DNA of 64,000 nucleotides from Armatimonadota bacterium (GTDB lineage Bacteria; Armatimonadota; Hebobacteria; CAIYQO01), in contig JAKPKV010000137.1 in the NCBI GenBank assembly GCA_029553475.1, forward strand, positions 69,976 through 133,975, given 5' to 3'. Under the pieces are notes generated by a model. That model was not told where the DNA came from. It worked only from the letters and a program-made list of their open reading frames with translations, and ran no database searches. Within the stretch, counting starts at the first letter, position 1; each line of letters starts with the position of its first letter. Below, one piece after another: positions 34,387-53,384 of the stretch. The translations under genes were made by a program, and so were the position numbers.

Positions 34387-35613
<1,227 letters not shown>

Positions 35614-35668
35614 CGTGACGATCTCCTTTCTCAACACATCATGAAGTGATGATGCTTCGGTCCGGGCA

Positions 35669-36952
35669 TCAGTTGTCGAACAGCACCATGCTCAACGCGC
35701 CCGCGCCGCAATACACCCCGGTTCCGGCCGTGGCGCGGATGCGGACGGTGCCCGGGCCCCGCACGCAGAATCCCGCATAGTACGCATTGAACGTTGATCG
35801 CACGCCGTCAGTCCCGCCGGGCAAGGTGATGGCCGGGGTCACTTTTTTGACGACCCCGCCCGTGTCCGCGACGTCGAAGACCAGCGGGGAGCCGCCGCAC
35901 ACCGGCAGCGCATACAGCGTCACCACGTGCAGCGCGCTGTCGGCGAGGGCGACGTTCACGCTGACGGCACGGCACATATTGCGCGGGTGAGGGCCGCTCG
36001 CGGGATTGTCAGCGGTGAAATAGAGGCCGGCTTTGGAGGACAGACCGTTCGGCCCCTGCGCGACCTGCGTGCGCTGATCAGCAACCGCCATGTTTTCCGG
36101 CATGGCGGTGAAGGGGGCGGTAAACTCCCGCACCGCGGACGAAAAATGGCCTTGATCCAGGGTAAACCGGAACGAGAGGCCGCTGGCCCAGGCGGGGAGC
36201 TGCGTTTTGATGTCCGCCGTGACCGGCGTGCGCCCGGCGGTCTCCCCGGTGTAAATCCAGTAGCCTTGCTCGCCGTAGTTGGAGAGGTCAACGGTGCCCG
36301 CCGCGGTGGTCGGGAACGCGAGTTGGGGACCCACCACCACGTCCCACAGGCGGAGCGGCGCGCGCTTGCCCAGCTCGGGCGGATTGAGATACAGGTCATG
36401 ACGCTTGAGCGCCGCCGTCACATCGTCCTTTTGCAGCGAGATATAGACGGCATGTCCGTCCACGGCGGATACCAGAAATCCCTCGTTATGCCGGGCGTCA
36501 ATGTCTTCATTGCCCCGCACCAGCGTGTAACTGGCGAGTGAATCCTTGTGCCGTTTCAGATCCGCGGTGAGCACGGTCTGCTCCGGATACGTGATGTCGC
36601 CCAACGCCGTGTCGAACAGGAACCAGTTGAATCCGTATTCCGGACGACCGCTGTTGCCCATGCCTTTCGTGCCTGACAACGACGGACAGTCATAGATGTT
36701 CGACTCGTTATAGGCGCCGAGCACCGTCGGCCAGGGTATGTCGCCGGTGTTGACGGGAAAGATCTCGCTGTGATCCTGCACGAACATGCTGACGGCAATG
36801 GCCTGCTGCCGAACGTTGTTCAGGCATTGGGACTGTTGGGCCTTCTCGCGGGCTTTCGCGAAGACCGGGAAGAGGATGGCGGCCAGAATCGCGATGATCG
36901 CGATGACCACCAGGAGTTCAATGAGGGTGAACCCTCGTCTCGCGGAGACCAT
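35669..36952 (-). CDS. prepilin-type H-X9-DG family protein (operon 1, promoter-proximal gene)
   Basis: ATG at 36952 after [55 protein letters not shown]. Confidence 0.88.
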
Positions 36953-37093
36953 GTCAATAACCTCCTTTGACAAATTGGGTTATGATGCATGGAAATGCAC
37001 GGCAGAACGCCCGGCACCCGTTGACGCCACAGCATGCCCCGGTGCCTCTTTCGGTGCCTCTTTGGCCGGCCACAGGCTCCAGGCTCTCGGCCC

Positions 37094-37118
37094 TTCCGAG
37101 AAGCGCGCATTTTCGGAA
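37094..37118. repeat. recombination-site-like inverted repeat A (9-7-9)
   Basis: TTCCGAGAA-GCGCGCA-TTTTCGGAA. The extended match to site B covers 37093-37124 (29 of 32 positions). Confidence 0.85.
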
Positions 37119-37224
37119 GTTAGTAGGCGTAAATAATCATGATGTATGGCGCTCCGTCACGCGCGGGAGCGCCTCCGCGGGGCGTGGCGGCGCGGCAATA
37201 GTCGCGAAAGTAGAGGGGAACGGG

Positions 37225-37398
37225 CAACAGTTCAGTCCTGTCAGCATGTCGCCGATTGATGGCAAACCTAACCCCCCGCCCCCCTTCCCTGAGAGGGAAG
37301 GGGGAGTGATGGGTGTGCAGCTCCGGTGCTCCCCTCCCCGCTTAGGGGAGAGGTGGGCGGGCAGACGCCACATCACGCTGACAAGACGGAACGGTTAC
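37225..37398. mobile_element. MITE-like 174-bp insertion inside cassette 1
   Basis: Absent from the homologous position of cassette 3. Flanked by a 9-bp direct repeat GGGAACGGG (37216-37224 and 37399-37407). Imperfect terminal inverted repeats CAGTTCAGTCCTGTCAGCATG / CACGCTGACAAGACGGAACGG. Contains an R4-type twin hairpin. Confidence 0.65.
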
Positions 37399-37413
37399 GG
37401 GAACGGGGTGCGC

Positions 37414-37443
37414 TTGACAAAACAGACCCATGATGGGTAGACT
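37414..37443 (+). promoter_or_regulatory. promoter P1 inside cassette 1 (reads rightwards, away from operon 1)
   Basis: TTGACA-18 nt-TAGACT, ending 3 nt before site B. Homologous to P3 on the opposite strand. Confidence 0.6.
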
Positions 37444-37446
37444 AAC

Positions 37447-37471
37447 TTCCGAAAATGCGCGCTTTCCGGAA
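37447..37471. repeat. recombination-site-like inverted repeat B
   Basis: TTCCGAAAA-TGCGCGC-TTTCCGGAA. The spacer is the exact reverse complement of the site A spacer. Confidence 0.85.
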
Positions 37472-37491
37472 CCTTCCCCCGCACCCACTCC

Positions 37492-37563
37492 CGCCGGCGC
37501 GGCGATGACCCCGACAACAACGAAGGCGCGCTGGTGATGCGCCTCGCGTTGCGCCACGCGTGA
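37492..37563 (+). pseudogene. relic of the rimI 3' end
   Basis: Reads RRRGDDPDNNEGALVMRLALRHA*, versus genuine rimI RRRGYYPDNNEDALVMRLDLRRA* (34211-34282), followed by the same type of hairpin. Confidence 0.75.
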
Positions 37564-37564
37564 C

Positions 37565-37592
37565 GACGCCCGAGGCACGTGCCTCGGGCGTC
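37565..37592. terminator. hairpin terminator (paralog of 34288)
   Basis: GACGCCCGAGGCACGTGCCTCGGGCGTC. Confidence 0.6.
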
Positions 37593-37619
37593 GCTGTCTC
37601 GGCAGGCAAACGAGGGGGG

Positions 37620-38717
37620 CTATTCCACCCAGAAGGCCATCATCTCCGTACAGCCGTTGCCCTGGGCGCCGGTGTCGAACGGTTTGACGGGATCCACTTC
37701 GAATTTGACGCCTTTCACATCGTAGAACTCGGTCTCCGCGGCGCGAATGTCCCAGACGATCTTCGCGCCGCTCTCAACCGGCGCGGTGTCGCGCAGATTG
37801 CGCGGGCCGGATTTCGTGCCGAATTCCACCCAGGTGCTCGTGCGGGCGTCCAGCACGTAGACCTGGCAGGGGCCCACGCTGACGGTATCTTTTTCGCCGC
37901 CGCGGATTTTTATATAGTTGACGCGCGCCAGCGTCGGCAGAGAGAATTCGCACCAGAACGAAGAATTTCCGTCCCAGCGGCAGCGCGGGGTGGTGTAGCT
38001 CACGTATTCGATGCCATCCGAGATGTGCTGGATCGGGTTCCACGAGGTCAGCGGCTGGCTGCTCACCTTCGGCACGATCCCTTTCAGCAGGCTGGAGGCC
38101 GCGCTGGTATTGGAGGTGGCGGTCGCCTCGGTCACCGGCGAGTTCGCCGCGCCGCTGGAGGCCAGGGATACTCCCTTCAGCGTCATGCCGTCGGCGACGG
38201 TCTGCGGGCTTTTCACCACGATGTTGTCGGCGTGGCCATCCACCGCCACGAAGTTGAAGCTGTTGTTGTGACGGGGGTCAATATCCGTCGTCTGGCTGAT
38301 GGCGCAGGCGCCGGTGAAGGCGCTTTTCTTCAGGTCGGCGCACAGCACCGCGGAGGTGGGGGACAGCACCTCGCCCATGACTATGGGCGCGTACAGGTTC
38401 TTGTTGAAGCCGTATTCCGGCGCGGTGTTGGTGCCGGTGCCGGTGAACGATGGGCAGTCGTAGATGGTCGGCCCGTTGTACGGCGTCAGGTAGGCGCCCC
38501 AGGCGCTGCCGCCCGGATCGGGGAAGAAGGTCTGGTTGTTGTCCTGCACGTACATCTGCACGGCGACGGCGATTTGCCGCAGGTTGTTCAGGCAGGAGTT
38601 CTGCCGGGCTTTCTCCCGCGCGCGGGCGAACACCGGGAAGAGGATCGCCGCCAGGATGGCAATGATCGCGATCACCACCAGCAGCTCGATTAACGTAAAA
38701 CCGCGTTTCCGCATCAT
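37620..38717 (-). CDS. prepilin-type H-X9-DG family protein with discoidin/galactose-binding-like C-terminal domain (operon 2, distal gene)
   Basis: ATG at 38717 after [57 protein letters not shown]-terminus [32 protein letters not shown].. is paralogous to the next gene. Confidence 0.88.
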
Positions 38718-38753
38718 GAGTTCTCTCCTTTTCTCCACTGTCACGCGCATGGC

Positions 38754-39860
38754 TTACAGGACGAAGAAGGCCATCATCTCCGTGCCGCCGTTCCCCTGCA
38801 CATTCGTGTCGTAACCCGCCACCGGGTCCACGACGATCTTGACGCCGGACACGTCATAGTAGTTGGGCGTCATCGCGCGGATGTCCCAGAGCAGCGTGGA
38901 GCCGCTGGTGCCGCTGGGGTTCAGGTTGGTGGCGGCCGTCTTCGCGCCGATGTTCACCCATTCCCCGGTCTCTTTGACCTGCAAGGAGAGCTGGCACGGG
39001 CCGATGGAGATGGTGTCTTTCTCGCCGCCGCGGAATTTCAGATAGTTCACGCGCAGGCCGTACGGCAGCTCCCAGACCACGGTGAAGCTGCTGTCGCGGG
39101 ACCAGCGGCAGCGCGGGGTGGTGTAATTGATATAGTCCACGCCATCCGAGAGGTATTGAATCGGATTCCACGACGCCAGCGGCGCGGGGGTCGGTGTGCC
39201 GACCAGCCCTTTCAGCAGGTTGTTGATGGCCATGGCCTGGCCTATCGCGATGGGCTCCTCCGTGTTAATGATGGCATCCGGGCCGTAGAGCAGGTATTTG
39301 CGCGCGGGGAGCGCCTGCTTGATCGTCTGCCCGGCCAGGTTCTCGGTGGCGACGTGGCCGTCCAGGCAAGCCAGCAGCGCGTTGCCGCCGTGGCGGGGGT
39401 CCATGTGCTCGTATTTGGTGAAGGCGTAGTTGTCTTTGAACTGCGTCTTGGCGAGGTCCGTCGCCACGATGTACGTTTCCGGGGGCGTCAGGTCGCCGAG
39501 GGCGTAGCCGAAGAGCCAGCCATTAAAACCATACTCCGGGGCGGTGTTGGTGCCTTTGCCCTGCAGCGAGGGACAGTCATAAATGCTCGGCTCGTTGTAG
39601 GGGGCGAGATAGGCGGACCAGGGCGACGTCTTCGAATCCGGGAAGAGCATTTCGCCGTGATCCTGGAGATACATGCTGACCGCGATGCCGATCTGCCGCA
39701 GGTTGTTCAGGCACGACGTCTGGTTGGCTTTTTCGCGCGCCTTCGCGAAGACGGGGAAGAGGATGGCGGCTAAAATCGCGATGATCGCGATCACCACCAG
39801 GAGTTCGATGAGGGTGAAGCCCGCGCGGCGGCGGGTCCCTCTGCTCGGCAGCTGAGACAT
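38754..39860 (-). CDS. prepilin-type H-X9-DG family protein with discoidin-like C-terminal domain (operon 2, proximal gene)
   Basis: ATG at 39860 after [77 protein letters not shown].. Confidence 0.88.
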
Positions 39861-39907
39861 ACCCTACACTCCTTTCAAAAAGAACGTAGTATGGCCAACG
39901 CGATAGG

Positions 39908-39932
39908 TTCCGAAAATCGTATGTTTTCGGAA
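39908..39932. repeat. recombination-site-like inverted repeat C
   Basis: TTCCGAAAA-TCGTATG-TTTTCGGAA. Confidence 0.85.
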
Positions 39933-40053
39933 ACCAGCGGGCGAAAATGTTGCTGCCGGGCGCTCTGTGACGCCTGAATGGGGGGTATTTTGCCTCCGAG
40001 GGCTGCTGTCCGGGGCGCTACCGGGGGCATTGGCGGGCAAAGGCTCCCGATAC

Positions 40054-40083
40054 TTGACAAGAAAGGTCCTTGTCGCATATATT
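40054..40083 (+). promoter_or_regulatory. promoter P2 inside cassette 2
   Basis: TTGACA-18 nt-TATATT, ending 4 nt before site D. Confidence 0.6.
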
Positions 40084-40087
40084 TAAG

Positions 40088-40112
40088 TTCCGAAAACATA
40101 CGATTCCCGGAA
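40088..40112. repeat. recombination-site-like inverted repeat D
   Basis: TTCCGAAAA-CATACGA-TTCCCGGAA. The spacer is the exact reverse complement of the site C spacer. Confidence 0.85.
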
Positions 40113-40370
40113 TTGCCCGTGCAGGCGCGACAGCGGCACGACGCCGACATAGCATACCGGTGTATCACACCACGACCGCTGCCGTACTCGGACCTAGACA
40201 CCGTTGATGTCCGCGCGCGGCCTCCCGCCGCCCCCAAAGCCCTGCGCCCCCGCCCCGTGCCGGGCAGCCCGCCCGCATCCGGCAGGGGCATCCCATCGCG
40301 TGTCCCGCGCTGTTGACGTTGCCCTGCTTCCCGTGGACGCGTGCAGCGGTGAACCGGGGGCGACGTACGC

Positions 40371-40402
40371 GACGCGCCCGGTGCCAGGGCACCGGGCGCG
40401 TC
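40371..40402. terminator. hairpin terminator (paralog of 34288 and 37565)
   Basis: GACGCGCCCGGTGCCAGGGCACCGGGCGCGTC, 25 nt beyond the stop of the 40427 gene. Confidence 0.6.
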
Positions 40403-40426
40403 TGTCCAGGGGGCCAGCGGCCCAAT

Positions 40427-41584
40427 CTAGGGTTCGAAGACCAGGTAGGCGGCGCCCCTGTTGCAGCCGGTCGGGCCACTGAGCTGGATGCTCGTGGCTT
40501 TCCCCGCCTCGCAGGGTACCAGGAGGAAGCCGACGGAGGCTTTATCCGTGGAATTGGCCGAGGCTTTGATGACCTGGTTCAGGGTGACGGTGTTGGTCCC
40601 GGTGGTCACGCTCTGGATGGTGAAGGACGCGTTCGCATTGGTGTCAGCGGAGGTGAAGACCACGCCGACCTTGCGGATGCCGCTGGCATTCGGCACGAAG
40701 GTCACTTTCGCGGTGGTGACCCGGCCATCGTAGTCGCCGAATGGCGGCTGGATGTTCGCGCCGTTCCAGTTGAGCCAGGAGTTGCCGTTCCAACTGGACA
40801 GGGAGCCGCTCACCAGCGTCCAGGTGCCGTTGTCGCTCCACCAGCCCGGGTTGCCGGTGGGCATGAGCAGCATGCTGCTGGCGCCCCCGGTGCCGGCGGC
40901 GACCAGGGAGGCGATCTTCGAGATGCCGACGCCGCCCAGGAGGCCCTGCACGCTGCCGTCCGAGCGCTTCAGGTTCTCCGCCAGCAGCACGAACGGCACG
41001 CCGGCCACTTTCGAGCCTTTCGCCAGCGAGTAGGCGAAGGTGGCGGCGGTGATGTTGTCCTTGGTGAGGTAGCCGACGTGGCCGTCCACGTAGCCGAAGA
41101 CGGCGCCGTTGTTGTGGCGGCCCGTATCGCACTGCGCGAGCGCTTTCGCCAGGTCGCCGGTGTCGCCGTCATCCACGTAGGGCTTGCCGGTGGCCGGGCT
41201 CTTCAGCTCGGCGAGCATCACCGCCTCCACCGCGGAGCCGACGTCGTTGAGCGCCGCGCCCGAGAGGAAGGAGCCGGCGACGAAGAAGTAGTCCGGCTGC
41301 ACTGACTTGCCCATGAAGCTGGTGGTGGGACAGTCGAAGATCTTGTTCTCCGCGCCGTAGTTGGCGGCAAGCTGGCTGTTCCAGCCGGTGGCCGACGGCA
41401 GCTTGGAGTCGTGGTCCTGCGCGTACATGGTCATGCCGATGCAGAGCTGCCGGACGTTGTTCATGCAGGTATTCTGCCGGGCCTTCTCACGGGCTTTGGC
41501 GAATACCGGGAAGAGGATCGCCGCCAGGATCGCGATGATCGCGATGACGACCAGGAGCTCGATCAATGTAAAGCCTTTTCGCAT
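40427..41584 (-). CDS. prepilin-type H-X9-DG family protein (operon 3, distal gene)
   Basis: ATG at 41584 after [55 protein letters not shown]. Confidence 0.88.
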
Positions 41585-41613
41585 GGGATGATACCTCCTC
41601 TAGGTAATCGGCC

Positions 41614-42765
41614 TTATTCCTCGAAGGCCAGGCTCATGCCGCTCCAGCCGGGGATGGCGCTGTAATCGAGAGTGATCTCGATGGTCTTGCCGGCTTCGAC
41701 GGGGATGGCCAGGAATCCGGCCGCCACCTTGCCGCCGCTGGACTGGAGGGATTTGTTGAGCGTATACGTGTCGGCGCCGATCTTGATGGTCGAAAGCCGC
41801 GTGATGCCCACGCCCAGGCTGTCCCAGCAGCTATACATCACCACCAGCTTCTTCGTGACGGGCGTGGTCAGGCTGGCGTGCGGGACGATCGTCACCGTCG
41901 CGATGCCTGTGCGGCCGTCGCCGTCGCCGCAGATCGGCACGCGGTTCGCCCCGTTCCAGCGCACGCCGTTCCAGTCGTACACGGTATTCGTGCCGACGAC
42001 CTGGGTGAACGTCGGCATCGCCGACCACCAGGTGGGCGTGCCGGTCGGCTCCACGGCGGTCGCTTTGTTGTACAGCAGTTTCGTCACGCCCAGCGCCTTG
42101 CAGGTGGTGTAGAAGGTCTGCGCGGTGTCGCGGGCGGGCGTCATGCCGTCGGCGATCTGCCCCATCCACGTCGGCTCGGTGACGACGACGTTGGGATTCA
42201 TGCTGGGGGCGAAGAAGCCGGCGTTGATCTCCTCGCGCTTCACCCAGGCCACGTGGCCGTCCAGGAAGGCGAAGACCGCGCCGCCGTTATGGCGGGCGTC
42301 CGCGGTGGCGACGGCGGTCAGCGGATTCTGCGTGCCGTTGTCGTTGATGTACGGCGGGTTTTCCCCGGGCCCGGACTGGTCGCCGACGATGGGCGCGAGC
42401 TCCGGATACTTCACGTCGCCCAGCGCCATGCTGTCCAGGAAGGAGCCGGCCACGTAGAAGTAGTCCGGCTGGGTGTCGGTGCCCACGTGGGTGATGGAGG
42501 GGCAATCCCAGACTTTGCCGGTCATTCCGTAGTGCTGCGCCAGCACGCCGTACCAGGTTTTCGCCGGCGGCAGCCTCTCCTCGTTGTCCTGCACGTACAT
42601 GCTCACGGCAATGGCAATCTGCCGCTGGTTGTTCATGCAGGTGTTCTGGTTGGCCTTCTCGCGGGCTTTCGCGAAGACGGGGAACAAGATGGAGGCCAGG
42701 ATGGCGATAATCGCGATCACCACCAGGAGTTCGATGAGGGTGAACCCTCGTTTCGGGGAGACCAT
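41614..42765 (-). CDS. prepilin-type H-X9-DG family protein (operon 3, proximal gene)
   Basis: ATG at 42765 after [55 protein letters not shown]. Confidence 0.88.
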   Translation of the reverse strand: MVSPKRGFTLIELLVVIAIIAILASILFPVFAKAREKANQNTCMNNQRQIAIAVSMYVQDNEERLPPAKTWYGVLAQHYGMTGKVWDCPSITHVGTDTQPDYFYVAGSFLDSMALGDVKYPELAPIVGDQSGPGENPPYINDNGTQNPLTAVATADARHNGGAVFAFLDGHVAWVKREEINAGFFAPSMNPNVVVTEPTWMGQIADGMTPARDTAQTFYTTCKALGVTKLLYNKATAVEPTGTPTWWSAMPTFTQVVGTNTVYDWNGVRWNGANRVPICGDGDGRTGIATVTIVPHASLTTPVTKKLVVMYSCWDSLGVGITRLSTIKIGADTYTLNKSLQSSGGKVAAGFLAIPVEAGKTIEITLDYSAIPGWSGMSLAFEE

Positions 42766-42892
42766 GTTCGTAACCTCCTTTACGGATTGATTATGATGCA
42801 CGGAAATGTGCACGGCAGGGTTCTCGCGCTCATCACGCTGGAGAACGCCTCGTTGCCGCCTGTGCCGACCATACGCTCAAGGGTCTTGGCCC

Positions 42893-42917
42893 TTCCGAGA
42901 ATCCCGTATTTCCGGAA
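42893..42917. repeat. recombination-site-like inverted repeat E
   Basis: TTCCGAGAA-TCCCGTA-TTTCCGGAA. Confidence 0.85.
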
Positions 42918-42920
42918 ATT

Positions 42921-42949
42921 AATCTACGCATCACGGCCTATTTTGTCAA
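42921..42949 (-). promoter_or_regulatory. promoter P3 inside cassette 3 (drives operon 3)
   Basis: Minus strand TTGACA-17 nt-TAGATT, ending 3 nt before site E. Confidence 0.65.
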
Positions 42950-43063
42950 GTAATCCCACGCGTTCCCCCGCCACTTCCGCGACTATTTCAGCGTCTCCAC
43001 TCCCACGGGGGCGCTCCCGCGCGCGTGACGGAGCGCCACGCCTCACGATGTACGCCCGCTGAC

Positions 43064-43088
43064 TTCCGGAAATACGGGATTTCCGGAA
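43064..43088. repeat. recombination-site-like inverted repeat F
   Basis: TTCCGGAAA-TACGGGA-TTTCCGGAA. The spacer is the exact reverse complement of the site E spacer. Confidence 0.85.
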
Positions 43089-43410
43089 CCTTTCCCCGCG
43101 CCCATCCCGCCGGCGGATGAGATGAGGAAGGGCTGTGGTCGCCTCGCGTTGATGCCGGCAAGGCAGCAAATGCTACAGCCCAGGGGTCACCACCCTCGTG
43201 CCCCGTCACATGGCATTTGCCGGCGTAGCGGCAGACGCATCGCGGGTGGCTTCCGGCGCGTCCTGCCGCTTCAAGGCCAGCATGAACTCCTCGTCGCTGC
43301 AGCCCAACTCCGTGTGCGCCAGCGAGTCCGGGCTCGCGTTGGCGGCCATCGTGGGGGGGGATCCATCCCCAGCGCCCGGTCGGCCCCGGCCTTGTCGGGG
43401 GAGACCCCGT

Positions 43411-43493: not shown

Positions 43494-43587
43494 TCAGTAT
43501 TGATAAAATTATAACACGGACAGATAGCTCTGTCAATGCGACGGCGGCTCTATTACCGAAAAAAGCTGGCGGGGAAAGGAGGCGACG

Positions 43588-44751
43588 ATGACTGATCTGC
43601 CCATCGCGGGATTATCCGTCCGCGCCGTCACCCTCAAAGACATCGCCGCGCACTGCGGGGTGTCGCTGGGCACGGTGTCGCTGGCGCTGCGCGACGACCC
43701 GCGCATCAGCACGGATACCCGCGCGCGCGTGCTGGCGGCGGCAGCCGAGCTGGGATACGACCCCACGCTGCATCAGGCGGCGCGCCGGCTGGCGCTCAGC
43801 AAGCACGGCCGCGACGTGCTCAATCACGTCATCGCGCTGATCGCCCCGTCGGGCTTTCACCGGCCGGGCTATTTCGCCGAGCTGCTGCACGGCATCATGG
43901 ACGTGCTGGTGCCCGCCGGCTTTTGTGCGCTCATCACCTACATTTACTCGCACGAGGACGCCCAGGAGACGACCATCCCCAGCGCCCTGCGCGCGGGCAT
44001 TGTGGACGGCCTCATCAGCATGGTGCGCCCGGAGCCGGTCATCGCGCTGCTCGACACGCTGCGCCGGCAGCCGGGATTCGCCCGCCGCCCCACCGCCTCG
44101 CTCATCTGGGAGATGCCCGGCAGCTCCTGCGTGCGCGCCGATGACGAGGGCGCCGGATACGCCCTGACGCGGCGCCTGCTCGCGCTGGGGCACCGGCATT
44201 TCCTGCAGTTGACCTTCCTGCTGCCCTACAGCAAAACGATGGAACCCCAGAACTACCGCATCGCGGGCGCGCGGCGCGCGCTGGCGGAGGCCGGCCTCGA
44301 TCCGGACCGCCACCTGCTGCTCGCGGACATGTCGAACTTCAATTGGCTCAACCCGGCGCATATTGACTCGGACCAGCCCGAACTCGCGCAGGTGTGGGTG
44401 GGCGACCGGGTGTTGCCGCTGGTGGACGTGCTGCGCGCCCACCCGGCCATCACCGCCATCTTCGGCCTGAACGACGCCAGCGCGCTGCGCGCCTGGCGGC
44501 TGCTGGAAGGGGCGGGCTATCGCGTGCCGGCGGACTACAGCATCGTCGGCTTCGACGACACGACGCCCCGTCTCGACGCCGCGGGCGCCAACCAGCTCTC
44601 CTCGGCGCGCGTGCCGCTGCAGGAGATCGGCCGCGCCGCCGCAACGCTGATTATCGAACAGGCCACCGCGGCCGTGCCGCGCGCCCCCGCGGAGCTGGTG
44701 CTGCCGGTGGCGATGGCCTTCCGGGGATCGGTCGGCCCGGCGCGAGGGTGA
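43588..44751 (+). CDS. LacI-family transcriptional regulator
   Basis: 387 aa, ATG after AAGGAGG. N-terminal HTH VTLKDIAAHCGVSLGTVSLALRDDPRIS..TRARVLAAAAELGY, followed by a periplasmic-binding-protein-like fold. Confidence 0.88.
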   Translation: MTDLPIAGLSVRAVTLKDIAAHCGVSLGTVSLALRDDPRISTDTRARVLAAAAELGYDPTLHQAARRLALSKHGRDVLNHVIALIAPSGFHRPGYFAELLHGIMDVLVPAGFCALITYIYSHEDAQETTIPSALRAGIVDGLISMVRPEPVIALLDTLRRQPGFARRPTASLIWEMPGSSCVRADDEGAGYALTRRLLALGHRHFLQLTFLLPYSKTMEPQNYRIAGARRALAEAGLDPDRHLLLADMSNFNWLNPAHIDSDQPELAQVWVGDRVLPLVDVLRAHPAITAIFGLNDASALRAWRLLEGAGYRVPADYSIVGFDDTTPRLDAAGANQLSSARVPLQEIGRAAATLIIEQATAAVPRAPAELVLPVAMAFRGSVGPARG

Positions 44752-51253: not shown

Positions 51254-52315
51254 TCACCTCAGCACGAGCACGATGAAGCGGATCTTCTGGATCTCGAAGT
51301 ACTGCTGGGTGTCATCGTAGCAGGTGAGGGGGGTGATCCGGACATATCGCGCCTGCGCCGGGCTGCCGAATTGGTAGTCCTCGCCTCGGTAGTTCGTCAC
51401 GAACGTCGCCGGAGCGGTGGGGAGGGGCACGGCCAGGACATTCGGCGTGATGGTCACCGGCGTGAAGCTGGTGCCGTTGAGCGACACCGCCACGTTCGCC
51501 GTGCGCACGGCGTATTTGGCCGAGTTGGCCGCGTTCGTGTTCCATAAATGGAACGCGGACACGTAATACGCCTGCCCCAGGTCGTAAATCAGATGGACGT
51601 CTGTTTTCGTGCTGCTGCACCAGGGATAATGGATTTGATCATAGCCATACGTGTGCCCCGGCCAGATGGCGGGCACCTCCGCGCCGGTCACGATATCGGC
51701 GGACAGGCCGGTGGCGTCAAGCGTGTGAGAGGCGGGATAGAGCGCGCTATAGGGCTTGGACGCCGCCTCATCCACCCCGACGGGCTTCACCACCATCCGC
51801 TGCGCCCCGGCGGGGACGTCGGGCCCTTTATACGTCCAGGAGGCGCTCTTGTCGGTGGTTTCCACATGCCCATCCACGAAGGCCGCGATGGTCTTTTTAC
51901 TGTGGCGGGTGGCCGCCGTGGCGAGGTGCTGGCCGTCGGCGGTGCAGAAGGTGGCGGTGGGATCGGACACATCGCCGAGCGCGGTGCCATCCAGCACATT
52001 GTTATACACGTAGTCGGGGTTGGTGGCGGCGCCTTTCTTCGAGGTGGTCGGGCAGTCCCACACCTTGCCCGGGGTCTCCGCCGCCTGCGTCCAGGTGGCC
52101 GACCGGGGCAGGGTTTCATCGTAGTCCTGCGCGTACAGGGTGATCGCGGTGACGAGCTGGCGCTGATTGTGCATGCAGGTGGTCTGCCGCGCCTTCTCAC
52201 GGGCGTTCGCAAACACCGGGAAGAGGATGGCCGCCAGGATGGCGATGATCGCGATGACGACGAGCAGCTCGATCAGGGTGAACCCGGAATGCGGCCGCTG
52301 ATGATGATGAGACAT
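51254..52315 (-). CDS. prepilin-type H-X9-DG family protein with F5/8-type-C (discoidin)-like C-terminal domain (solitary copy)
   Basis: ATG at 52315 after [55 protein letters not shown]-terminus ..[26 protein letters not shown]... No flanking inverted sites; a TATAAT lies at 52347-52352 (minus). Confidence 0.88.
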
Positions 52316-52425
52316 CAGACGCTCCTTTCGCAAACTGATGCATGAAATTATAAGCGGCAGGCACGGCAGCGTCGTTCTCTGATACGGACTTAGTATTTCG
52401 CGATCCGGTCACGGGGGAGAATTGG

Positions 52426-52473
52426 AAACGCTCTCCACGCGTCTCGCCGCCGCGAGATGCGTGGAGAGCGTTT
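52426..52473. terminator. long hairpin after the AraC-family gene
   Basis: AAACGCTCTCCACGCGTCTCG-CCGC-CGCGAGATGCGTGGAGAGCGTTT with a flanking T-run. It abuts the AraC stop codon (52474-52476). Confidence 0.55.
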
Positions 52474-53384
52474 TTAGGCGCCGACGTCAGTGCGGTACTG
52501 GCTGGGCGTCATGCCGAAACGGCGTTTGAAGAGCGCGCAGAAGTAGGCGACGTTGGCGATGCCCACCCGGGCACCGATGGCGGAGAGTTTCAGGTCTGTT
52601 TCGCGGAGCAGCAAGCAGACCTGGCGCATGCGCAACTGCAGCAGGTATGCCATCGGGCTCAAGCCCGTTTGCGCGCGGAAGAGGCGCGCGAGGTGGCGCG
52701 GGCAGTATCCGGCGTGCTGGGCGAGCGTGGCCATGGTGATCGGCTCCGCGAGATGCTGCAGCATGAACTGCTCGACCTGGGGCACCACCTGCGGCACGCG
52801 GGGATGGGCCGGCGGCGTCTCCGCAAACCAACCGGCCACGGCCAGCGCGTCGGCGGTCAGAGCACCGCGGCCATGGCGCGCATCGTCCAGCCGGGCCGCC
52901 CCTCCGCCGCCTCGGTAAAGATGTGCCGGCACATCGCGATCACCGCCGGGTCGGCAGGCCAGACCGACGGCACGGGGACGGCGACGGCGGGGTCCAGCGT
53001 CATCTGTACGGCACAATACACGCAGGTGTGCGCCGCGACAGCCCAGGAATGCTCGGTATACGGCGCATGCAGCATCATGCTGCCCGGCTGCAGCGCCTGC
53101 GGCGCGGCGCCCGGATACGCGGCCCCCCCCTGCACGATCACCAGCAACTCGTAATACGAGTGGGAATGGGGCGGAACCGTCGCGCCCGGGCGCATGGAGT
53201 GCAGGGCCACGTTCTCCAGCGTCATCGCGTAGTCGCCGACGGTGAACCGCGGCTGGTCGTGGAACAACCGCTCACACCGCTGGCGCAGCCACCACCAGCG
53301 CTCGGACGCCGTTTCCTGCACGCCACGCTGCATAAAAAAACACCCCCGGAACATCGGGACAGGCATCACCCCGCGCCAAGCCAT
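52474..53384 (-). pseudogene. AraC-family regulator split by a frameshift (cupin N-domain + HTH C-domain in different frames)
   Basis: ORF 52857..53384 encodes the cupin part (..PPHSHSYYELLVIVQG..) and stops at ..RAMAAVL*. ORF 52474..53016 carries the AraC HTH (..ITMATLAQHAGYCPRHLARLF..FKRRFGMTPSQYR). The frames join smoothly at about 52858-52866 if one base is added. Confidence 0.7.

Follow-up and report, generated by a model that had tools for sequence, protein, structure and literature searches.

Predicted invertible promoters upstream of pilin-like operons

We analysed a stretch of 64,000 nucleotides (nt) from an Armatimonadota bacterium (contig JAKPKV010000137.1), which at its full length is referred to as the window. 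Between 34.4 and 42.8 kb, the window contains three pairs of minus-strand genes (six genes) for prepilin-type/DUF1559 proteins, with a DNA cassette (C1, C2 and C3) directly upstream of each pair. We put the probability that these cassettes and their relatives in other assemblies form a multi-locus family of site-specific invertible promoters (invertons) at about 0.8. A preliminary description had seen in C1 and C3 the footprint of site-specific inversion between the bounding repeats. This reading is now supported by the orientations of paralogous cassettes, the variants of the outer site arms and the spacer match within each cassette, and among the explanations compared below it would be the only one that fits all of the evidence. 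The gene pairs, the cassettes and the putative recombination sites, which were located by pattern search, are as follows.

34387-36952, minus strand: operon 1, genes 35669-36952 and 34387-35637, prepilin-type N-terminal/DUF1559 (Pfam N_methyl and SBP_bac_10; NCBIfam TIGR02532 and TIGR04294).
37620-39860, minus strand: operon 2, genes 38754-39860 and 37620-38750, prepilin-type/DUF1559 (Pfam and NCBIfam profile matches).
40427-42765, minus strand: operon 3, genes 41614-42765 and 40427-41584, prepilin-type/DUF1559 (Pfam and NCBIfam profile matches).
37094-37471: cassette C1, upstream of operon 1, bounded by two inverted 25-nt sites.
37094-37118: gene-proximal site of C1, TTCCGAGAA-GCGCGCA-TTTTCGGAA (inverted repeat I4, 31 nt, 94% complementary).
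37447-37471: distal site of C1, TTCCGAAAA-TGCGCGC-TTTCCGGAA, with a spacer that is the reverse complement of its partner's.
39908-40112: cassette C2, upstream of operon 2.
39908-39932: gene-proximal site of C2, TTCCGAAAA-TCGTATG-TTTTCGGAA (inverted repeat I7, 92% complementary).
40088-40112: distal site of C2, TTCCGAAAA-CATACGA-TTCCCGGAA.
42893-43088: cassette C3, upstream of operon 3.
42893-42917: gene-proximal site of C3, TTCCGAGAA-TCCCGTA-TTTCCGGAA (inverted repeat I8, 92% complementary).
43064-43088: distal site of C3, TTCCGGAAA-TACGGGA-TTTCCGGAA.

The three pairs of 25-nt inverted sites that bound C1-C3 are 92-94% complementary. Their motif, TTCCGNNAA-N7-TTNNCGGAA (TTCCGRRRA-N7-TYYYCGGAA, 25 nt), occurs six times in the window, always at a cassette end, against a chance expectation of 0.01; six or more copies were found in none of 100 shuffles. 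The spacers GCGCGCA (C1), TCGTATG (C2) and TCCCGTA (C3) each return as their exact reverse complement at the opposite end of the same cassette.

According to the preliminary description, C1 and C3 have collinear flanks and mutually inverted interiors. All elements that it named are present at the positions given, and alignment of C1 with C3 in both orientations bore out the arrangement. The left flanks (36953-37093 and 42766-42892) align in the forward direction only, with a local score of 55 versus 18 when reversed and a shuffled maximum of 24. The right flanks (37472-37560 and 43089-43180) likewise scored 41 forward versus 18 reversed (shuffled maximum 27). In contrast, the interiors align only as reverse complements, with a score of 85 reversed versus 26 forward (shuffled maximum 29), and collinear interiors were not found. 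The promoter block CTTGACAAAA..TAGA(C/T)TAA lies on the plus strand by the right site in C1 (37414-37443) and on the minus strand by the left site in C3 (42949-42921). Homology between the two interiors is limited to ~90 nt and the 33-nt promoter block. C2, a third cassette beyond the pair described earlier, has the same orientation as C1.

Anatomy of the sites

Site statistics were calculated over 22 sites from 11 distinct cassettes, in the window and in other assemblies. In each site, an asymmetric spacer of 7 nt separates two inverted arms of 9 nt (TTCCGRRRA). Of the 18 arm positions, 14 show no variation (arm entropy 0.22 bit), whereas the seven central positions are highly variable (1.21 bit). 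Between the two ends of the same cassette the spacers agree at 77 of 77 positions, compared with a mean of 39 and a maximum of 63 after permutation, and all 11 spacers are non-palindromic.

The outer-arm variants track the flank, whichever way the interior points. C1 and C3 share the proximal arm TTCCGAGAA and the distal arm TTCCGGAAA, and c2 and c4, two cassettes on a sister contig, share the distal arm TTCCGGGAA. Because these variants stay with their flanks, the inversion breakpoints should fall inside the 25-nt sites. Within a cassette the outer arms mostly differ, one being A-rich (TTCCGA[AG]AA) and the other G-rich (TTCCGG[AG]AA); only 2 of the 11 cassettes have arms that agree. An asymmetry of this kind could favour one direction of switching over the other.

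Tyrosine recombinases such as lambda Int, Cre and FLP require homology of the overlap between partner sites. The predicted sites have the geometry of a tyrosine-recombinase core site of the lox/FRT/dif kind, with inverted arms around a matched and asymmetric overlap in the 6-8-bp range. Serine invertase sites (Hin/Gin/Mpi type) are dyad-symmetric and of even length, with a central 2-bp crossover, and only those 2 bp must match the partner. In contrast, a length of 25 nt puts the dyad axis on a base, and matching spans seven central positions, which is suggestive, but not decisive, evidence against a serine invertase. The cassettes also differ from a shufflon (Rci/sfx) in that their spacers are all different and their sites intergenic.

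Predicted promoters and ON/OFF states

Each cassette carries one predicted near-consensus sigma-70 promoter that faces outward, with 3-4 nt between the end of its -10 element and the inner arm of the nearer site. The promoter scan identified the following.

37414-37443, plus strand: C1 promoter, TTGACA-N18-TAGACT, 10 of 12 matches, pointing away from operon 1 on its left.
40054-40083, plus strand: C2 promoter, TTGACA-N18-TATATT, 11 of 12 matches, pointing away from operon 2.
42921-42949, minus strand: C3 promoter, TTGACA-N17-TAGATT, 10 of 12 matches, pointing into operon 3.

Judged by predicted promoter direction relative to the minus-strand operons, C3 would be ON, and C1 and C2 would be OFF. 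The promoter block is kept in the alignment of all 11 distinct cassettes. The cassette promoters rank among the best sigma-70 matches across the 9.6-kb region, and the scan of this region found no other promoter-like sites in the untranslated regions (UTRs) between cassette and operon. Matches in a terminator scan were no commoner than in shuffled sequence. An orientation-dependent intrinsic terminator within the cassettes was considered as well and found to be unsupported, the only candidate being a weak 5-bp hairpin with a T-run on the antisense side of the C1 promoter.

Upstream of C3 lies a further promoter that is not part of a cassette.

43508-43536, minus strand: fixed consensus promoter, TTGACA-17-TATAAT with TG, 12 of 12 matches, reading toward C3 from ~410 nt upstream.

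Two AAGCGCTT palindromes (TTAAAGCGCTTTAA and TGAAGCGCTTTAG) are located downstream of this promoter, and a LacI-family gene (43588-44751) is divergent from it. The fixed promoter may thus be a LacI-controlled, sugar-responsive second input to the first pilin operon. Another cassette contig (L028, see below) likewise carries a LacI-family gene upstream of its cassette.

Related cassettes in other assemblies

Further copies were retrieved by exact look-up of seven window proteins in public assemblies, which returned the same organism from several anaerobic digester metagenomes; cluster mates of the window proteins are named 'bacterium ADurb.Bin429' and 'Armatimonadota bacterium'. The other assemblies of this digester organism contain at least eight further cassettes with the same arms.

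The sister contig L001 (JGI, 133 kb) carries four cassettes: C3, c2 (spacer TCGTATG), c4 (spacer TCACACG) and C1. The interiors of c2 and c4 are 97% identical, yet they are opposite relative to their genes, with c2 OFF and c4 ON. Hence, both orientations relative to collinear flanks are seen between paralogues, in C1 versus C3 and in c2 versus c4. The differences between c2 and c4 comprise four internal positions, three of the seven spacer positions at both ends and 3 nt beside each inner arm. Substitutions are therefore concentrated in the spacers (3 of 7, concordant at both ends) compared with the interior (4 of 149). Such a pattern would result from selection for overlap regions that are specific to a locus but matched within it.

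Scanning metagenome contigs for paired sites yielded additional cassettes, which have the same arms but new spacers.

GCGTATA: contig L018.
TACAATG: contigs L023 and L025.
ACGAACA: contig L024.
TGGCCTG: contig L027.
CCGCATG: contig L028.
TCGTAAG: contig L033.
CCGCACA: contig L034.

By promoter direction, four of the 11 distinct cassettes are ON (C3, c4 and those of L027 and L034) and seven are OFF (C1, C2 and those of L018, L023, L024, L028 and L033). The cassette segments are 146-328 nt long. All 11 interiors are homologous. Their non-promoter ends share the conserved block CCAGCGGGCGAAAAT, the promoter keeps a constant distance from the opposite site, and mean column identity across cassettes is ~43%. 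At 3.0-4.1x, the cassette contigs are covered about as deeply as those contigs of the same ENA assemblies that belong to the window's organism, so that all cassettes probably come from one genome.

The genes behind the cassettes are mostly pilin-like. However, in the region 3404-4931 of L024 the cassette precedes a gene for a secreted protein with NPCBM and FGE-sulfatase domains, and in the region 1214-2769 of L033 it precedes one for an uncharacterised 365-amino-acid (aa) protein with a signal peptide. DUF1559 genes are therefore not the only ones associated with the switch family. In a collection of representative genomes, from which the species is evidently absent, the paired-site scan returned only unrelated tandem repeats and hairpins (Shewanella, Sorangium and others). 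A single-site scan of viral contigs gave 17 isolated sites and no pairs, which we treated as chance matches.

Proposed mechanism and alternative explanations

We propose that a trans-acting recombinase, most likely of the tyrosine type and encoded outside the region, would bind the shared arms and exchange strands within the spacer. With each exchange the promoter would come to face the downstream operon or to point away from it, and the operons switched in the window would be those for the pairs of divergent type-IV-pilin-like/DUF1559 proteins. Because partner sites of a tyrosine recombinase must share their overlap sequence, private spacers would let every cassette flip independently. They would also disfavour exchange between neighbouring cassettes and thereby the loss or large-scale inversion of pilin genes. 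Alternative secreted or surface proteins would as a result be expressed in varying ON/OFF combinations. In its full form, the proposal is that one unlinked tyrosine recombinase runs a regulon of at least a dozen lox-like switches, each insulated by a private 7-nt overlap, giving independent combinatorial switching of pilin-like DUF1559 and other secreted proteins, while non-cognate exchanges occasionally remodel the loci. We offer this combined scenario tentatively, at a little less than even odds. Candidate traces of non-cognate exchange are a hybrid site in contig L022, a lacI gene truncated at the c4 site and a 3.2-kb difference between the window and L001, which are all detailed further below.

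Several observations weigh against inversion by such an enzyme. All open reading frames (ORFs) of the window were compared with Pfam, and those without a match with NCBIfam; the 10 kb past each end of the window on the sister contig and the ORFs of the cassette contigs were scanned as well. No recombinase was found in the 64-kb window, in the region extended by these flanks (~84 kb) or on the cassette-bearing contigs, nor did any of these sequences encode a Phage_integrase-domain protein. Site geometry is the basis of the assignment to the tyrosine recombinases, which we regard as somewhat probable. The activity of the cassette promoters and their transcription starts are predicted from consensus matches only. 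Near-identity of c2 and c4 could stem from gene conversion rather than from a recent flip. Moreover, each locus showed a single orientation throughout the 2-7 assemblies compared for it. The OFF state was the one found for C1 (seven assemblies) and for the TACAATG cassette (two), and the ON state was found for C3 (three) and c4 (five). Since assemblies report the majority state only, and those compared here probably come from related reactor samples, this uniformity is weak evidence against fast switching. With no cassette seen in both orientations, it is the conservation of the sites that points to present-day activity, and we consider it likely that the switches still operate today.

The uniform orientation in all assemblies compared and the lack of a recombinase in ~84 kb or on any cassette contig would also be expected if the cassettes were fossil switches, which were once invertible but have lost their recombinase or fallen into disuse, so that their orientations are now hard-wired ON or OFF. 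The mismatched spacers in L022 (CCGCATG and CCGCGCG) also resemble those of a locked switch. However, a global invertase such as Mpi or RecV is typically encoded away from the sites on which it acts. Furthermore, the arms are nearly invariant, while the interiors have diverged to ~43% mean column identity. Spacers that have diversified between cassettes, and still match at every position within them, need continuing recombination or continuing selection for it. Fossil switches are therefore an unlikely explanation.

Three further alternatives did not hold up. The segments are short, multicopy and bounded by inverted repeats, and C1 itself has gained an insert resembling a miniature inverted-repeat transposable element (MITE), so that the cassettes might be promoter-carrying MITEs with 25-nt terminal inverted repeats, inserted upstream of genes in either orientation. 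Yet no target-site duplication or flanking direct repeats occur at any cassette, and both flanks are homologous between cassettes, which implies joint duplication of a cassette with its flanks as a single unit. Transposition does not generate central 7-nt segments that differ between copies and co-vary at both ends. No transposase was found among the ORFs of the window and the cassette contigs, and neither empty sites nor identical terminal repeats at unrelated loci were seen, an absence that contradicts insertion as a MITE and makes it very improbable. Much the same low probability applies to sites that act as operators or RNA-structure elements, i.e. as regulator palindromes or as a long-range helix in a read-through transcript, with orientations resulting from ordinary rearrangement. 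Each site is indeed a palindrome with a 9-bp stem, paired sites could base-pair in a transcript from the upstream promoter at 43536-43508, and an RNA helix would also lead to spacer co-variation. This explanation leaves open why the inversion breakpoints lie exactly inside the sites in every paralogue pair, and why the arms are conserved in sequence beyond mere complementarity; moreover, an Rfam scan of the whole window gave no family match. Lastly, the orientation of segments between inverted repeats might have been chosen arbitrarily by the assembler. Coverage of the assemblies is low (3-4x), contig L007 is obviously a palindromic artefact, and the differences between the window, L001 and L032 fall in a 137-nt repeat. 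However, the inverted repeats span only 25-31 nt, shorter than reads and usual k-mers, so that orientation is fixed by the reads, and independent assemblies (2-7 per cassette) agree on every orientation, which implies correct junctions. We regard an assembly artefact as extremely improbable.

Comparison with known inversion systems

Overall, the predicted switches resemble a combination of fimS-type function, multi-locus organisation as in Mpi and RecV systems, and lox/FRT-like site design with heterospecific spacers. Like fimS of E. coli, which is inverted by the tyrosine recombinases FimB and FimE, they are short segments (314 bp in fimS) that are bounded by inverted repeats and carry the promoter of a pilus operon, with ON and OFF set by orientation; the fimS recombinase also binds half-sites flanking the crossover region. 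In contrast, fimS is a single locus with adjacent recombinase genes and 9-bp inverted repeats, whereas here at least 11 loci, without a linked recombinase, have shared 9-nt arms and private 7-nt spacers. The targets differ as well, being pilin-like/DUF1559 proteins of the type IV pilin class rather than chaperone-usher fimbriae.

With Mpi of Bacteroides fragilis, which acts on invertible polysaccharide promoters, and RecV of Clostridioides difficile, the proposed system would share one unlinked recombinase acting on many promoter or leader segments, with combinatorial surface variation as the result. Mpi, however, is a serine invertase, and its inverted repeats have a core in common. Those of RecV, a tyrosine recombinase, vary between loci and show no clear shared arm motif. 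In the cassettes described here, locus-specific sequence is confined to the 7-nt centre between nearly invariant arms, and the recombinase would be a candidate encoded outside the region.

The site design is closest to Cre/loxP, lox511, lox2272 and FLP/FRT, in which inverted arms likewise surround an asymmetric 6-8-bp spacer. This spacer sets orientation and must match the partner, and sites with different spacers do not cross-react. The lox sites have 13-bp arms and an 8-bp spacer instead of 9-nt arms and a 7-nt spacer, and there is no sequence similarity to lox or FRT. Moreover, heterospecific lox sets are man-made, whereas an equivalent set appears to have evolved naturally here within one chromosome. 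The R64 shufflon (Rci) and Moraxella Piv also vary type IV pilus-related proteins by site-specific inversion. They invert coding segments and thereby swap C-termini, whereas here promoters would be inverted; their 7-bp spacers are identical and all sites cross-react, whereas here the spacers are kept different. The private-spacer design across about a dozen loci is the most distinctive feature of the cassettes.

Promoter inversion is a classic bet-hedging device, and nearly all work on it concerns gut and pathogenic members of the Proteobacteria, Bacteroidota and Firmicutes. A literature search found no report linking invertons with Armatimonadota or DUF1559. Phase variation as a mechanism is well known, and the cassettes add a clean multi-locus case in Armatimonadota from an engineered anaerobic ecosystem. 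The prepilin-type/DUF1559 family is very large and of unknown function, and the predicted switches offer a concrete handle on it. Phase-variable, mutually divergent pairs would argue for surface exposure and for fluctuating selection by phage, predators or substrates. Furthermore, invariant arms with private, co-varying 7-nt spacers would be a natural counterpart of engineered heterospecific lox sites, and the recombinase, if found, could supply an orthogonal toolkit for multi-site inversion.

Rearrangements near the sites

Comparison of the window (39778-39932) with L001 (6716-10200) revealed that the window is without 3.2 kb, comprising two pilin-like genes, a lacI fragment and cassette c4. 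Both copies share an identical stretch of 137 nt, beginning in the proximal site arm, and the point of exchange falls somewhere within it. Contig L032 holds the reciprocal junction, with c4 fused to the gene that is missing from the window. A site-specific deletion was considered, but because the exchange point may lie anywhere in the identical stretch, homologous recombination or an assembler chimera is equally possible. An excised circle or a duplication could also account for the difference. In the region 9273-9773 of L001, the truncated 5' end of a 150-aa C-terminal lacI fragment lies 24 nt from the distal site of c4, which implies that a past rearrangement had a breakpoint at or beside the site.

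Contigs L022 (2326-2530) and L028 (2823-3027) carry the same cassette and gene (99% identity) with different distal flanks. The distal site in L022 is a hybrid, with the outer arm TTCCGGGAA and the spacer CCGCGCG versus CCGCATG in its partner. It has the appearance of a product of non-cognate exchange, and such a cassette should be locked.

C2 in the window differs from c2 in L001 only in the 3 nt that adjoin the promoter-end inner arm on its interior side (window 40085-40087; L001 6561-6563). These read AAG in C2, as in c4, and GGT in c2, and may represent a small gene-conversion patch between cassettes. Contig L007 (ENA ERZ795049 NODE_13533) is a perfect head-to-head palindrome of the region of C1 and operon 1, which we attribute to assembly rather than to biological inversion.

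Other features of the window

Three features adjoin or interrupt the cassettes.

36953-37093, minus strand: 5' UTR of operon 1, a collinear homologue of the operon 3 UTR (forward alignment), with the ribosome-binding site AAAGGAGGT.
37472-37508: C-rich distal flank CCTTCCCCCGCACCCACTCCCGCCGGCG, common to C3 (43089-43125) and the L024 cassette (direct repeat D16, forward alignment).
~37225-37400 (approximate): insert of ~180 nt found only in C1 (alignment gap), hairpin-rich, with the imperfect terminal inverted repeats CCTGTCAGCATG and CACGCTGACAAG.

The C1 insert contains the G/C-rich hairpins CCCCCTTCCCTGAGAGGGAAGGGGG and CCCCTCCCCGCTTAGGGGAGAGG and separates the promoter from the conserved upstream block. 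No second copy of this MITE-like insert was found in the window or in any related locus retrieved.

The G+C content of the window is 67%, and its housekeeping genes include rpoD, dnaG, ffh, the genes for ribosomal proteins L10/L12, ftsZ and tsaE. In the Pfam and NCBIfam comparisons, all six operon genes matched the N-terminal methylation motif of prepilins and the N-terminal region of DUF1559, and only two of them also matched the H-X9-DG motif (TIGR04294). The first ~45 residues of the six pilin-like proteins are near-identical and the remainder is 33-51% identical; their likeness to solved type IV pilins is limited to the N-terminal helix.

A seventh prepilin/DUF1559 gene (51254-53384) is fused to an F5/8 type C (discoidin) domain and adjoins an AraC/cupin-type regulator. 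It has no cassette, which makes it a conventionally regulated member of the family. At 175-1898 in the window and at 10001-12261 in contig L036, a gene for a Ras-like small GTPase (one cluster mate is named MglA) is followed by Roadblock/LC7 (MglB-like) and PatA_N genes. This module looks like a polarity or motility module of the type that works with type IV pili.

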